Below the pieces are notes generated by a model. It saw only the letters and a program-made list of their open reading frames with translations. It searched no databases and had not been told where the DNA came from. A stretch of 64,000 nucleotides of DNA, taken from Escherichia coli (GTDB taxonomy: Bacteria; Pseudomonadota; Gammaproteobacteria; Enterobacterales; Enterobacteriaceae). The position numbers and the translations under genes were made by a program. Where the stretch lies: the NCBI RefSeq assembly GCF_003334815.1, contig NZ_QOWO01000015.1, one strand, 5' to 3'. Below, piece after piece: positions 7,121 to 48,700 of this stretch (positions are counted from its first letter, which is position 1; every line of letters begins with the position of its first letter).

Positions 7121-7771
<651 letters not shown>

Positions 7772-12358: not shown

Positions 12359-13516
12359 TTAACGGGCTGGTGCTTTATCGTTCTCACGCTTAACAACCGG
12401 TTTACCAGAGAACAAAAACTTCAGTAACGGGATGCGCAAATGAATTTCATACAGAATTATCGCAATCCCTACTACAAATATCAGGCCACAGAGAAAACCA
12501 AGCCAGTTGGAGGTGATGTGCGGTGTAATGTATGCGCCGAAAAACAGCGTTAACGGGTGGTGAACCAGATAGATAAACAGCGATGCGTTAACAAAATAAG
12601 TCACCCGCGCTGACTGGAAGTTAAGCAAACGGTGGCCAAAGGAGAAGACCACATTCACCATCCACAGACCGAGGACCATGGTGATCACCGACTCGGTTTC
12701 GTACATCCAGGCATCGCCACTGCCATAGCGCTGGTTGAGTAAATAAGCGACAAACGCCAATGCTGCTGCAAGGGTACAGCCACGAGACGGCGTGGTAAAC
12801 AAGGCTTTAAGATGAGGGAAAATGAAAGCCAGTGCGCCGAGGATAAAGAACGGCAAATAAAACAGCGTTTGCATGACAATAAAATTGAACATGCCATTAC
12901 TCAGAATGGGCGGATACACAATAAAAATCGTTCTTCTTATTACCGCATAACCGATGCCGAGGCATAAAAAAATCACCGATAGTTTTACCATCGAGAATTT
13001 TTTATTCGTTTTATCAGAATTTTCTAAATTATTTCTGATGCGCTTAAATATCCATACGCACAGCGTCGTCATGACCACTAACACCAGTAAAAACCACAGG
13101 TGTGATATTAATTCCCAGGCCAACGTATTATATTTGTCATACAATGACAGCCCAGGCCAACTTTCCGCTTTTCCTTTGACATATTGCAGCATAATAAATT
13201 GCGGTAATGTCAGTAGGGGGATGGCTGTTAACATCGGGATACCTACACGTTCGACACGTACTTTCCACCATTTTTTCAAGGGATAGCGTAAAAAAAGCAT
13301 GTAGGAAAAGTAGCCGGATATAACGAAAAATACCTGCATGCGGAACGAGTGGATGAAGTCATTAAAAAGGGTCAGCCACAATGATGATTCGGCGCTATTC
13401 ACATGCCATGTATGGCTCGAATAGATTAAAGAAATATGAAAAGGTATCCCTAACAACATCAGCCAGGCGCGGATGGAGTCGAGGAAATATTCACGTTGCG
13501 CGGGTACTGGGTTCAT
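12359..13516 (-). CDS. opgC: Osmoregulated periplasmic glucan succinyltransferase OpgC (membrane acyltransferase), 385 aa
   Basis: 385-aa polytopic membrane ORF, recognised translation [27 protein letters not shown]... Confidence 0.9.
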
Positions 13517-20236: not shown

Positions 20237-21157
20237 TTAATAGCGTGAAGGAACGCCTTCCGGGCGTGTTTTAAAGCGACGGTGTAACCACATATACTGC
20301 TCTGGTGCCATCATGATGCATTTTTCGACCACTTTGTTCATCCACGCGGCGGTAGTTTCGGCATCATCCAGTGGCGGAGAACACTCTGGCGGCAGCATAA
20401 TCAATTGATACCCTTTGCCATCTGGCTTACGGCGTGGAACGAAGGGCACCAGACATGCGCCGGACATCCGTGCCAGCATCCAGGTTCCGGTCGTGGTCGC
20501 AGCCTGCTCAACGGCAAACAACGGGACGAAAACGCTTGAGCGCGGGCCGTAATCATGATCCGGTGCGTACCAGACCACTTCGCCTTTTTTCAGGGCTTTA
20601 ATCATGCCTTTTAAATCTTTGCGGTCGAGCATCGATTTATTTGAGCGCAAACGGCCCCAGGTTTGTAGCCAGTCAATCAGTGGATTATCGTTCGGGCGAT
20701 AAACGCCAATACCCGGTTCCTGCATACCAAACTGCCGCGCACCCAGCTCCAGTGTCAGAAAATGGATGCCAACTAACAGGATGCCGCGTTTTTGCGCCTG
20801 CACGTCACGAATGTGTTCCATGCCGATCACTTCCGTCCAGCGGGCGATTCGGCGGTCCGGCCAGAACCACGCCATGCCGGTTTCCATCAGGCCCATGCCA
20901 ACGGATTCGAAATTCTTCACCACCATTTTACGGCGTTCTTGTTCGCTCATTTCCGGGAAGCACAGTTCCAGGTTGCGATGCACAATTTTTGCGCGTCGTT
21001 TCATAAAACGTAACGCCAGTTTTCCTAATCCACAACCGAGGCGGTAGATAACCGGGTAGGGCAATTGCACGACTAACCAAAGTACGCCAATACCCAACCA
21101 GGTTAACCAATAACGCGGATGAAGCAGTGCGGTGGAGAACTTGGGTAGATTCGTCAT
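20237..21157 (-). CDS. lpxL: Lipid A biosynthesis lauroyltransferase LpxL (HtrB), 306 aa
   Basis: ORF 20237-21220; ATG at 21155-21157 gives [24 protein letters not shown]... Confidence 0.93.
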
Positions 21158-25817: not shown

Positions 25818-26063
25818 TTATTCGCTGACAAACCAGTCATCGGCGCTTTCCCACGTTTCCTGGAGAATTTCACTAATGCGCTGTTTATCTTCTTTTGTCG
25901 CGCCAATAACCGATAAATTATTCGCTGCGGCATAACGTACCGATACGTGGCCTTCATTATCAGGAAACGCATACTGAATACGGCGGGAAAGTTCGCCAGC
26001 CAGGGCGTCAATAGCCCCAGCTGGCAATGGAGAAGTTTTCGCTATGGTGACTTCAATTCGCAT
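25818..26063 (-). CDS. dinI: DNA damage-inducible protein DinI, 81 aa
   Basis: ORF 25818-26195; ATG at 26061-26063 gives MRIEVTIAKTSPLPAGAIDALAGELSRRIQYAFP...; LexA box just upstream. Confidence 0.93.
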   Translation of the reverse strand: MRIEVTIAKTSPLPAGAIDALAGELSRRIQYAFPDNEGHVSVRYAAANNLSVIGATKEDKQRISEILQETWESADDWFVSE

Positions 26064-26136: not shown

Positions 26137-27183
26137 TTATTGTTTAACGGACCAGCGTACCGTTTCCCCGGCGAGGAATGGCACCAGCGTGTCATCAGTC
26201 AGTGCGATGCTTTCAGCAACCTGTTGCTCTTCACGTACCAGTTCGATGAATGTGTCGTTGACCGGCAACCCATAGAACTGCGGGCCGTTTACAGAACAGA
26301 ATGCTTCAAAGTGCTGCAAAGCATTCATTTCTTCAAAGACGGTAGCGTAACTGCCCAGCGCGGTTGGGGCGTTGAAGCAGCCCGCGCAGCCGCAACTGCT
26401 CTCTTTGCGATGACGTGCATGTGGCGCAGAATCCGTACCGAGGAATACTCGATTAAAACCGCTGGCGACCAGTTCACGCAATGCCTGTTGGTGAATATTA
26501 CGTTTGAGGATGGGTAGACAATACAGGTGCGGACGCACGCCTCCAACCAGCATATGGTTGCGGTTAAACATCAGATGCTGCGGAGTGATGGTGGCAGCCA
26601 GCCGTTCATTTCCGTCACGGACATAGTCGGCAGCATCTTTGGTGGTGATGTGCTCAAAAACGACTTTCAGCGCAGTCAGGCGCTGGCGCAGAGGTTCCAT
26701 CACGCTTTCTATAAAGCGCGCTTCACGATCAAAAATGTCGATATCTGCATGTGTCACTTCACCATGCACCAGTAGCGGCATACCGATTTTTTCCATGCGC
26801 TCAAGTACCGGCATGATTGCGTCAATTGACGTCACGCCGTGGCTGGAGTTAGTGGTTGCGTTTGCCGGGTAAAGTTTTGCAGCGGTGAACACGCCTTCGT
26901 TAAATCCGCGCTCCAGCTCATTAGGATCCAGCGAATCTGTTAAATAACAGGTCATCAATGGGGTGAAATCGTGCCCGGCAGGTACGGCGTCAAGAATACG
27001 CTGGCGATACGCCACGGCAGCCTCAACGGTGGTCACGGGCGGAGCCAGATTGGGCATTACGATAGCCCGTCCATAAATTTCGCTGGTATATGGCACGACA
27101 GTTTTTAACATGTCGCCATCGCGGAGGTGAAGGTGCCAGTCGTCTGGGCGGCGGATCTTTAATACCTGGGATGGTGCAGTCAT
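26137..27183 (-). CDS. pyrC: Dihydroorotase PyrC, 348 aa
   Basis: Translation [27 protein letters not shown]... (metal-binding HxH). Confidence 0.97.
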
Positions 27184-27234
27184 TAATCTCTATGCTCCGG
27201 CTGAAGGGATGTTTTTGCCGGACACAAAGGATAA

Positions 27235-27250
27235 GCGGAAACGTTTTCCT
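27235..27250 (-). promoter_or_regulatory. PurR operator in the pyrC leader
   Basis: gcggaaacgttttcct, matching the PurR box palindrome (AAACGTTT core). Confidence 0.7.
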
Positions 27251-27288
27251 TTGCACGAAAAATAAAGGGCGCGAATGCGCCCTCGTGA

Positions 27289-27849
27289 TTAATCAGTAAA
27301 TGGAATGACAATTTCGCCTGGCTTCACTTCAATGCCTTTCGCCAGTTTTTTCGCCATTGCTTCGCCCTGGCTGCCATCTTCGCGCAGGACGTAAGCAGGT
27401 TGCTGGTTAAAGTAATTGCGTAATGCCTGGTTCAAATAGGGAAGCAACGTTTGCATCACCGTTTGCATTTTTTCCGGTTGTACCGTCGCATCGACCACTT
27501 CCATCTCTTTCAGGAAGATCGCACCTTTTTCTTTATCAAACACGGGCAGCGCTTTCAGCTTCAGTTTCATGGTCGCTTTCTGACTACCGAACAGGGAGTT
27601 CATGTCCAGATTGGCGTCTCCGGTTAGGGTAACCTTATTCGGCTCTTCGCGACCAATTTGGCTGGTCAGGTTTGTCAGAACAATATGGGCGTCAGCCACG
27701 CCGGGTAAACCGATATCTTTTGAGAAATTATTATGTTTCGCAAGCGACTGGTTAATTTCTTGTTCGGTGATGGTGTATTGGGTGAGTTGATTACAGCCAA
27801 CGAGCAGGCCACTGACGATCAATGCAGCGGCAAATAAAAACTTGTTCAT
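27289..27849 (-). CDS. yceB: Lipoprotein YceB (DUF1439), 186 aa
   Basis: ORF 27289-28050; ATG at 27847-27849 gives MNKFLFAAALIVSGLLVGC... lipobox. Confidence 0.85.
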   Translation of the reverse strand: MNKFLFAAALIVSGLLVGCNQLTQYTITEQEINQSLAKHNNFSKDIGLPGVADAHIVLTNLTSQIGREEPNKVTLTGDANLDMNSLFGSQKATMKLKLKALPVFDKEKGAIFLKEMEVVDATVQPEKMQTVMQTLLPYLNQALRNYFNQQPAYVLREDGSQGEAMAKKLAKGIEVKPGEIVIPFTD

Positions 27850-45757: not shown

Positions 45758-48700
45758 TTACTCAACAGGTTGCGGACGCGCAGGAGCGGCAGAGGCATGA
45801 TGTGTTGCCGTATGACCACCTGCGGCACCTTTACCTTCGAAGGCAAAAGTAGGGCGCTGCCAGTCACTGTGACGCGGTGCCTCCGGAACATATTCCGGTG
45901 CTGGAGCGCGCGTCATTGGCGCGGTAGCGTGGTTATGCTCAACGGTGACCTCAGGTTCGACCGCAGCTACCGTTTCAACTTCTGCTGCGACTTCAGCGAC
46001 TACTGGCGCGGCAGGTTGAGCAACAACTTCAGGTTCAGCAACTACAACCTCAGCAGTTTCGACAACTTCTTCAATATCTGCCGTCTCTTCCTGCGGTTCA
46101 ACCACCGGTTCTGCTTGTTCTGCAACTTCCTGGGCTACGGCAACATCAGACTCGGTAATCACCTGCGGCTGTTCAGTTACCGCGGCAGCGATCACTTCAG
46201 GATGCGTCGTTTCAACCACTTCCGGTTGCGGTTCGGCAACCTGAACGGGGGCTTCTACGACACCGGCCACTTCTTCAACAACTGGCGCGCTAACAACCGG
46301 TTCGATAGCGGCGGCGACAGGGACCTCAGTCACCATCGGCTGCACATGTACTTCTTCCTGTTCGCGCTGCTCTTCAACCTGTACATCTTGCGGACGTACA
46401 ATTGGATAGCGGATCCAGACTTTGCCAGAGGCCAGTTCCGGAGACGCGCACGCTACGGTCAACGGCATTGGCGACTGGGTTGGATAACGCTCGTCACGAT
46501 AGCGACGACGACGCTGACCACTTACGCGCAGGTGACGAGGCGAGCGGCGAGAACGACGCGGCATGCCACCGTTGTCACGGTTATCAGCATTGTTCTCTTC
46601 TTGCTGTTCTGGTGCAGTTTGCGCTACGACTGGCAGCGGGACTTTCACCAGTTCTGTGCGTGGAGCTGGCGCTTCCTGAACAATTGGTTCGGCAGCGACA
46701 GTTTCTTCAACCACCGGTGCGACTACCGCTTCTTCGGCTACGCTTTGCTCGTAACGCACTTTCTGATTGAGCTGACGCTGTTTACGACGCGGCTGAACCG
46801 GACGTACACGTTCTTCCTGTTCGGTTTCCTGAACAGATTGCTCTTCAACATTCAGCGCCTTCGCTTCTTGTTGCGCCTGACGTTTATCATCATTACGGCG
46901 GCGGCTACGTTCACGACGCGGCGCTTGCTGCTCGTCGGCGGTACGCGCTTTTTCCGTTACCTCAGCCTGCTGACGGCTCTCACGCGTCTCGGCAGTCTGC
47001 TGCTGTGCCTGGCGACGATTACGACGGTTTTCTTCGCGATTATCGCTGCCTTCAGTACGTTCACTACGGGTGTCGCGGCGCTCATTACGGTCACGGCGGT
47101 TGTTCTGACGAGGCTTGCGACGATCCTGTTGACGTTCCGGTTTCGCTTCTGCTTTCGGTGCTGGTTGCTCGGTCGGTTTGGTTTCTTCACCACCGCTGAA
47201 CAGCGCTTTCAGTGCGCCGAAGAAGCGGCTCAACAGCCCAGGTTGTGCAGGAGCTGCTGGTGTTGCCGGTGCAGCTTTCGGTGCTGGAGCTACAACAGGC
47301 GCGGCAGGTTCAGCTGGCGTTGGCGCAGGCGGCACATCCGGCATGGCAAAGGTTGCCAGCGCAGGTTGTTCCGGACGCTTACGTTCAGCGAACTCTTCTT
47401 CAGACGGCAGCGCCATCGCTTCTTCATGCAGCTTCGGCAGCATGTAGCTTAAGGTTGGGGTTTCTTCCCCTTTACGCACGCGCAGCACGTGGTAGTGCGG
47501 GGTTTCCATCTGATCGTTTGGCACAATTACACAGCGCACACCGTCCTGACGAGTTTCAATGGCATTTACCGCAGAACGTTTTTCATTCAGCAGGTAAGAA
47601 GCGATTGGCACAGGAACAATGGCGTGAACTTCCTGGGTGTTCTCTTTCAGCGCTTCTTCTTCGATCAGACGCAGAATAGAGAGCGACAGCGATTCGTTGT
47701 CACGCACGGTGCCAGTACCAGAACAACGCGGACAAACGTGATGACTGGATTCACCCAGTGATGGGCTCAGGCGCTGACGGGACATTTCCAGCAGGCCAAA
47801 GCGAGAAATATGGCTGATTTGAATACGCGCACGGTCCTGACGCACCGCTTCACGCAGACGGTTTTCTACCGCACGCTGGTGGCGTACTGGCGTCATGTCG
47901 ATGAAGTCGATAACAATCAGGCCGCCGAGGTCACGCAGGCGCAGCTGACGAGCAATCTCATCGGCAGCTTCGAGGTTAGTGTTAAACGCGGTTTCTTCGA
48001 TATCGCCGCCGCGGGTCGCGCGTGCGGAGTTGATGTCGATGGCCGTTAACGCTTCGGTGCTGTCGATAACAATGGAACCACCAGACGGCAGACGAACTTC
48101 ACGCTGGAAGGCGGACTCGATCTGTGACTCGATCTGGTAGTGGCTGAACAGCGGGATCTCGCCGGTGTACAGTTTGATTTTGCTGCTGAAATCCGGGCGA
48201 CCTAATGCAGCGATATGCTGACGTGCCAGTTCGAGCACTTTCGGGTTATCGATAAGGATTTCGCCGATGTCCTGACGTAAGTAATCGCGGAATGCGCGAA
48301 CGATTACGTTGCTCTCCTGATGAATCAGGAACGGGGCCGGGCGGCTTTCAGCGGCTTTTTTGATGGCTTCCCAGTGTTTCAGACGGAAGCTTAAATCCCA
48401 TTGCAGCGCCTCAGCAGATTTGCCGACGCCAGCGGTGCGCACGATAAGCCCCATGCCTTCCGGCAGTTCAAGGCTTGCCAGTGCTTCTTTTAATTCGGTA
48501 CGGTCGTCGCCTTCGATACGGCGAGAAATGCCACCCGCGCGCGGGTTGTTCGGCATCAGAACCAGATAGCTACCCGCCAGACTGATAAAGGTGGTTAATG
48601 CCGCGCCTTTGTTGCCGCGCTCTTCTTTATCGATCTGAACAATGACTTCCTGACCTTCACGCAACACATCTTTAATGTTGGGACGACCATGAGCACTGTA

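Follow-up and report, generated by a model that had tools for sequence, protein, structure and literature searches.

The interval between yceB and pyrC in Escherichia coli contains a 16-bp imperfect palindrome at 27235-27250, which raises the question of whether it serves as an operator for the repressor PurR and, if so, at which step of pyrC expression it would act. PurR is a dimer of the LacI/GalR family that is active when bound to hypoxanthine or guanine. An initial annotation of the 64,000-nt stretch of E. coli DNA analyzed here (hereafter the window) had described the palindrome as a PurR box in the pyrC leader, and a nearby hairpin as the terminator of yceB. In the present analysis, the sequence, the matrix match, the position relative to promoter and leader, the conservation and the folding energies were computed; the PurR dependence of pyrC expression, the curated status of the site and the switching of transcription starts are taken from the literature.

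The box and its match to PurR sites

The 301 bases around the site are 100% identical to E. coli K-12 MG1655 and were found in all 5426 complete E. coli genomes searched (5426/5426), where the match is annotated as yceB (lipoprotein) followed by pyrC (dihydroorotase). Within the window, grxB, yceB, pyrC and dinI all lie on the minus strand (Table 1). Read along the pyrC strand, the yceB stop codon TAA is followed by GAGGGCGC-ATTC-GCGCCCTT and then TATTTTTC, the hexamer GTGCAA, the box AGGAAAACGTTTCCGC, a single T and TATCCT; thereafter come TTGTGT, CCGGC, a 15-nt loop, GCCGGAGC, CATAGAGATTA and the ATG of pyrC. Of the 5426 genomes, 5376 contain a single, exact copy of the 44-nt core promoter segment (27221-27264). 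A further 45 genomes gave no megablast match to this segment, although all 5426 matched the 301-nt query; these 45 presumably carry a substitution near the middle of 27221-27264, possibly inside the PurR box. Five matches to the 44-nt segment fall on records labelled plasmids.

Table 1. Coordinates of genes and control elements in the yceB-pyrC region of the window
Feature	Position	Strand	Remarks
grxB	27983-28630	-	NCBIfam equivalog and RefSeq
yceB	27289-27849	-	lipoprotein, upstream gene; NF007894 equivalog, 326 bits; RefSeq agrees
yceB stop codon TAA	27291-27289	-	
yceB intrinsic terminator (predicted)	27257-27284	-	stem-loop 27284-27265, loop AUUC; T-tract TTTATTTTT runs to 27258, ends at C27257
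-35 hexamer GTGCAA (most likely assignment)	27251-27256	-	17 bp upstream of the -10; abuts the PurR box
PurR operator (PUR box) of pyrC	27235-27250	-	AGGAAAACGTTTCCGC; imperfect palindrome, central CpG 27243/27242
-10 hexamer (Pribnow box) TATCCT	27228-27233	-	97% column identity in 17 species; first 6 nt of Rfam PyrC_leader
Alternative starts C27221/C27220 (high CTP) and G27219 (low CTP, high GTP)	27219-27221	-	deduced from published rules
PyrC leader, Rfam RF02372	27184-27233	-	cmscan 68.7 bits, gathering score 50, full length
Leader hairpin arms	CCGGC 27221-27217; GCCGG 27201-27197	-	3' arm overlaps Shine-Dalgarno GGAG 27198-27195
pyrC	26137-27183	-	dihydroorotase, regulated gene; TIGR00856 equivalog, 559 bits; RefSeq agrees
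dinI	25818-26063	-	NCBIfam equivalog and RefSeq

On the plus strand, 27235-27250 reads GCGGAAACGTTTTCCT and contains the core AAACGTTT at 27239-27246, exactly as had been claimed. The core had been offered as the mark of a PurR operator, a role that it cannot fill by itself because its frequency is at chance level (three occurrences in the window versus 1.74 expected). A search for the ideal palindrome ACGCAAACGTTTGCGT with up to three mismatches returned no match anywhere in the 64-kb window; the pyrC site differs from it at four positions by our own count.

A more sensitive comparison was made with a log-odds PurR matrix derived from the 28 ChIP-chip motifs that Cho et al. 2011 (PMC3159470) give in their Table 1, which do not include pyrC. 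This matrix is independent of the site under test because the ChIP-chip experiment of Cho et al. did not recover pyrC. It was scanned in two versions, as published and strand-symmetrised, and the above-threshold match anticipated by the initial annotation was obtained: the box is the best match in the 64 kb, with 16.5 bits (as published) and 17.7 bits (symmetrised). Its score falls within the leave-one-out range of true sites (7.4-25.1 bits), and its independent-base p-values of 1.2e-6 and 6e-7, respectively, which are optimistic figures, are well below the cut-off of 1e-4 used by Cho et al. (PMC3159470). The box is thus a 16-bp imperfect palindrome with a central CpG and a matrix score like those of true sites, atypical at position 13. 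It is suboptimal in two respects: it has C at position 13, a position that is G in 27 of the 28 reference sites, and the GCAAAC form is absent from both half-sites.

As a null, 2000 windows of 64 kb were generated with a first-order Markov model of the window sequence. A match at least as good occurred somewhere in 28.6% (as published) or 9.8% (symmetrised) of them, so the independent-base p-values have to be downgraded and the matrix score alone is weak evidence. By the same simulations, only about 3e-4 to 1e-3 such matches are expected in the 200 nt upstream of pyrC, and the box is the only good matrix match located in a promoter within the window. The next-best matches (12.8-14.4 bits, the level of the null maximum) all lie inside the coding sequences of csgD, lpxL, rne and mdoC. 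They include two directly abutting matches at the 3' end of the csgD coding sequence, at 7131-7146 (14.3 bits) and 7147-7162 (14.05 bits), and matches of similar strength in lpxL (20526-20541), rne (48294-48309) and mdoC (12623-12638). Being at the simulated null maximum, all of these are probably chance matches. The case for the pyrC box consequently rests on its position, its conservation in other Enterobacteriaceae and the literature, and not on its score alone.

Two alternative identities of the palindrome can be weighed on these grounds. One holds that it is a chance near-palindrome in intergenic DNA with no regulatory role, as the background frequency of the AAACGTTT core and the 10-29% of simulated windows with an equally good match somewhere would allow. 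Chance, however, would have had to place the box exactly in the core promoter of a gene known to be PurR-regulated, where hardly any match is expected, and to keep it in all 16 of the other Enterobacteriaceae sampled in spite of divergence in the intergenic DNA around it; moreover, the box appears among the known PurR sites. Together, its conservation and its curated record effectively refute this reading, the probability of which is very small. The second alternative is that the palindrome is the target of another LacI/GalR-family repressor, such as Cra/FruR or RbsR, or is shared with one. The plus-strand sequence GCGGAAACGTTTTC lies within two mismatches of RSTGAAWCSNTHHW, a Cra-type consensus, and the C at position 13 is atypical for PurR. 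At two mismatches, however, RSTGAAWCSNTHHW has 170 matches in the window versus 147 expected, which makes the match uninformative; the PurR matrix puts the box in the range of true sites, and the literature credits the regulation to PurR. A role for Cra/FruR or RbsR at this box is therefore highly improbable.

Position in the promoter and the flanking elements

The proximal end of the box (27235) lies 52 nt upstream of the pyrC start codon, whose A is at 27183, in good agreement with the earlier estimate of about 50 bp. A strict sigma-70 consensus scan of 27100-27400 called no promoter; the -35 hexamer was therefore assigned from its 17-bp spacing to TATCCT and from conservation. Its TGCAA is invariant in 17 Enterobacteriaceae, and the form [G/A]TGCA[A/T] is kept across Enterobacterales. 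With the elements placed in this way, the PurR box fills 16 of the 17 bp of the -35/-10 spacer and, with the C start at 27221 taken as +1, spans -29 to -14. The description of the box as part of the pyrC leader does not hold, since 27250-27235 is wholly upstream of both the deduced transcription starts (27221-27219) and the Rfam PyrC_leader match (27233-27184). A box in the promoter spacer rather than in the leader implies promoter occlusion instead of a roadblock, so correct placement of the site matters for its mechanism. As expected of a PUR box, the placement is one from which a PurR-responsive gene could be affected, the response of pyrC to purR deletion being known from the literature.

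Immediately downstream, the leader provides a second layer of control. According to the published rule, starts lie 6-7 nt after the Pribnow box and involve two extra C residues, which permit a 5' hairpin that sequesters the ribosome-binding site; another published source ranks the starts by their distance from the final base of the -10 as 7>8>9 nt. The CCGGC at the start region is invariant in the alignment of 17 species. Folding gave a hairpin of -8.1 kcal/mol for the RNA that starts with C and of only -3.0 kcal/mol for the RNA that starts with G. Both hairpin arms are invariant in the 17 species, and the loop differs in sequence and in length, from 15 to about 40 nt.

On the other side of the box, a terminator separates pyrC from yceB. 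The GC-rich hairpin reported at 27266-27281 exists, with its coordinates off by one: the core GGGCGC-gaat-GCGCCC occupies 27267-27282. Its assignment to yceB is borne out by a canonical predicted intrinsic terminator in the yceB orientation. The stem starts 5 nt beyond the stop codon of yceB, and the tail UAUUUUUCGU follows it directly; the terminator scan found an 8-bp stem with six G-C pairs, a 4-nt loop and the tail TATTTTTCGT. The terminator RNA folds at -16.7 kcal/mol (z = -4.5). The plus strand has no T-tract after the stem, which makes the terminator one-directional. A hairpin (-11 to -20 kcal/mol) followed by a T-run occurs between yceB and the pyrC promoter in 11 of 17 Enterobacteriaceae, with unrelated stems in the terminators of Kluyvera, Klebsiella and Pseudocitrobacter; by the same simple test, the yceB-pyrC interval of the other six contains no such combination. 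The recurrence of the structure with unrelated stem sequences is the signature of a selected structure. The element thus has the stem-loop and U-tract of an intrinsic terminator, as well as the conservation of structure without sequence.

The distance from the yceB stop codon to the PurR box is only 38-40 nt in Escherichia and Citrobacter, versus 45-116 nt in other genera. As a result of this short gap, the T-tract of the terminator runs straight into the pyrC -35, and the A/T-rich tail might also act as an UP-like element for the weak pyrC promoter. About 100 bp of DNA thus contain three control elements, namely the yceB terminator, the PurR operator in the core promoter and the start-switching leader.

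Conservation across species

The comparative set consisted of 80 pyrC loci from species-representative genomes, from which an alignment of 17 Enterobacteriaceae sequences was prepared. All 16 sampled Enterobacteriaceae other than E. coli have a PurR match of 13-21 bits located 49-68 nt upstream of pyrC, versus means of about 0-4 bits in coding-region controls. In the alignment, the sequence diverges completely upstream of the -35, and the -35, PurR box, -10, CCGGC and GCCGGAGC blocks show 92-100% identity to E. coli. The high-information positions 3, 6, 8, 9, 11 and 14 of the box are invariant. Substitutions are found only at positions 2, 4, 5, 13, 15 and 16, most of which are of low information; at position 13, every one of the 17 box-bearing species has C or A in place of the consensus G. 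The box is therefore conserved in orthologous promoters, with changes at tolerated positions, as would be expected of a PUR box. Automatic anchoring on the -10 was unreliable for L014, L035 and two Photorhabdus loci; the Photorhabdus rows are uninformative, and L014 and L035 have an intact PurR box at the usual position.

The promoters of Yersiniaceae, Pectobacteriaceae, Erwiniaceae and Hafniaceae share the same skeleton, with a -35, 17 bp, TATCCT, a C-run start and a Shine-Dalgarno partner. Their spacers contain no PurR site, with distal-half scores of -5 to -26 bits and no central CG. The absence of the box from these promoters makes it a family-level feature and not an order-level one. Conservation of the distal half-site (AGGAAAAC/ACGAAAAC) is restricted to promoters with the complete palindrome, as expected for the binding of a dimer, and the central CG follows the same pattern.

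The proximal half behaves differently. Yersinia, Rahnella, Pectobacterium and Brenneria retain the motif (C/G)TTT(A/C)CGC just before the -10 (27234-27241 in E. coli), and Hafnia and Edwardsiella have a weaker version of it; in each of these loci (L015-L022, L024 and L030) it is positioned about 17 nt upstream of the TATCCT -10. Since the proximal half (TTTCCGC) is conserved in families without the box, part of its conservation is not due to PurR, and, to judge from the aligned promoters, something other than PurR appears to constrain these bases in the sister families. It is conceivable, and we propose it only tentatively, that the proximal half (TTT[C/A]CGC) is an order-wide, PurR-independent element of the pyrC core promoter and that the operator of Enterobacteriaceae was built on it or is constrained by it. 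Such an origin would explain why position 13 is never G, why repression is weak and why the site was missed by ChIP-chip. The data fit equally well with the opposite direction, in which an ancestral box was lost by decay in the sister families.

Several observations were made outside the box-bearing promoters. Upstream of pyrC, each of the two Vibrionaceae loci has a good PurR box, in a promoter that is different and cannot be aligned. These boxes are near-consensus: GCGTAAACGTTTGCGT in Vibrio hannami (L074:1410-1425, 20.8 bits) and CAGCAAACGATTGCTT in Photobacterium piscicola (L060:1382-1397, 14.7 bits). Neither of the two pyrC promoters has the CCGG/CCGGAG leader hairpin. An upstream score of 16.5 bits in Erythrobacter (L046) was rejected as a PurR box because its own coding-region control reaches 15.6 bits.

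Two Yersinia species and Erwinia endophytica, none of which has the upstream box, carry a strong PurR-like 16-mer, AGGCAATCGTTT(T/C)CTT, with 17.8-19.4 bits, inside the pyrC coding sequence (L016:2070-2085, L017:2070-2085 and L020:1396-1411; +569 relative to the pyrC start, an identical codon position in all three). It could be a roadblock site of the purB type or a by-product of the encoded peptide. The E. coli pyrC coding sequence contains no intragenic PurR match of 8 bits or more. The Yersinia leaders differ as well: about 60-100 nt upstream of pyrC (L016 and L020), the start region reads CCCCGCCG and the Shine-Dalgarno partner CTGCGGAG, in place of CCCGGC and GCCGGAG, respectively. The pattern resembles a compensatory change (CCGC/GCGG) by which the hairpin that sequesters the ribosome-binding site would be preserved.

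PurR at pyrC and comparison with known systems

The published record identifies the box as an already catalogued PurR operator and thus as ordinary textbook biology rather than a new site. RegulonDB v6.0 includes the exact 16-mer GCGGAAACGTTTTCCT in its curated set of 15 PurR sites known from experiment. With reference to Choi & Zalkin 1990 and Wilson & Turnbough 1990, Cho et al. (PMC3159470) place pyrC among the genes for which direct repression by PurR was shown experimentally, and it is among the pyrimidine genes whose transcript level changes on purR deletion (Cho et al., PMC3159470). The same authors describe PurR sites as generally located between -35 and -10, and report that genome-wide ChIP-chip missed the PurR sites of pyrC and glnB, for which they give no reason (PMC3159470). 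From the RegulonDB listing and these secondary citations, PurR would bind at exactly these bases.

The published effect of purines on pyrC is comparable to the three- to fourfold repression at carAB P1. A literature search turned up no later support for PurR at pyrC, whether in vivo or from iModulons: a bioRxiv pyrC reporter paper makes no mention of PurR, and EcoCyc 2021, eLife 2017 and the 'mix and match' papers cite only the work on start sites. The two original studies, by Choi and Zalkin and by Wilson and Turnbough, both from 1990, are said to have reported roughly two-fold repression.

An effect of this size leaves room for a reading in which PurR binds the box in vitro and is nearly silent physiologically, the conservation then being mainly a constraint of the pyrC core promoter on strength or start selection. 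The small published effect and the failure of in-vivo ChIP-chip to detect pyrC both fit such a reading, as do the suboptimal state of the box in every species, with position 13 never G, and the persistence of the proximal ...TTT(C/A)CGC-T-TATCCT in palindrome-free Yersiniaceae, Pectobacteriaceae and Hafniaceae. It is difficult, however, to reconcile with the change in pyrC transcript level on purR deletion, with the listing of the site as known in RegulonDB and with a substitution pattern that follows the tolerance of the PurR matrix. Nor does promoter constraint alone predict a distal half and central CG that track the palindrome. Physiological near-silence is accordingly improbable, if somewhat less so than the two alternative identities of the palindrome considered above.

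The site at 27235-27250 is thus very probably an operator for modest PurR repression of pyrC, which occupies the -35/-10 spacer and most likely acts by exclusion of RNA polymerase. That the box is the PurR operator of pyrC, as already stated in the initial annotation, is supported by the RegulonDB curation, the published target status, a match to a pyrC-independent matrix and conservation in all 16 of the other Enterobacteriaceae sampled. Occlusion as the mechanism and GTGCAA as the exact -35 are the most likely assignments. Bound PurR would compete with RNA polymerase for the pyrC core promoter and so lower initiation. This purine input at the box would act on top of the separate pyrimidine control in the adjoining downstream leader, where the CTP/GTP-sensitive choice between C and G starts would set whether the CCGGC/GCCGG hairpin hides the Shine-Dalgarno sequence. 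Upstream, the hairpin and T-tract at 27284-27257 would stop yceB transcription just before the pyrC -35.

In this arrangement, the site is the known link by which purine availability can trim pyrimidine synthesis at pyrC. Beyond correct annotation, its importance is small. The presence of the box in all sampled Enterobacteriaceae, its absence in sister families and its suboptimal proximal half may be of use for models of regulon turnover.

The closest known system is the pyrC PurR operator of E. coli K-12 in RegulonDB, which is the same object, with 100% identical DNA and an identical 16-mer. The canonical pur operators (purF, purT, purHD and purL, among others) resemble the pyrC box in being 16-bp imperfect palindromes with a central CpG and A/T-rich inner arms, and they usually lie between or over the -35 and -10, as at pyrC. 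The PurR box of pyrD (CGGAAAACGTTTGCGT) has the left half and the AAACGTTT core in common with that of pyrC. In contrast to the 28 reference sites as a group, the pyrC box has the position-13 and half-site departures noted above, its repression is much weaker than that published for purine biosynthetic genes, and it went undetected by ChIP-chip (Cho et al., PMC3159470).

The intragenic sites of purB and purR and the upstream site of carAB P1 (-128.5) are the same kind of box for the same repressor. However, the purB and purR sites act inside the transcribed region as roadblocks and the carAB P1 site acts from far upstream, whereas the pyrC box is in the promoter spacer; the word 'leader' would wrongly suggest a roadblock of the purB type. 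The PyrC leader (RF02372) adjoins the PurR box and controls the same gene, and the difference in RNA stability expected between C and G starts was seen. Unlike the box, which is a DNA operator for purines located 2 nt upstream of the 5' edge of the leader model, the leader is an RNA-level pyrimidine sensor, and this module is present in Enterobacterales families without the PurR box.
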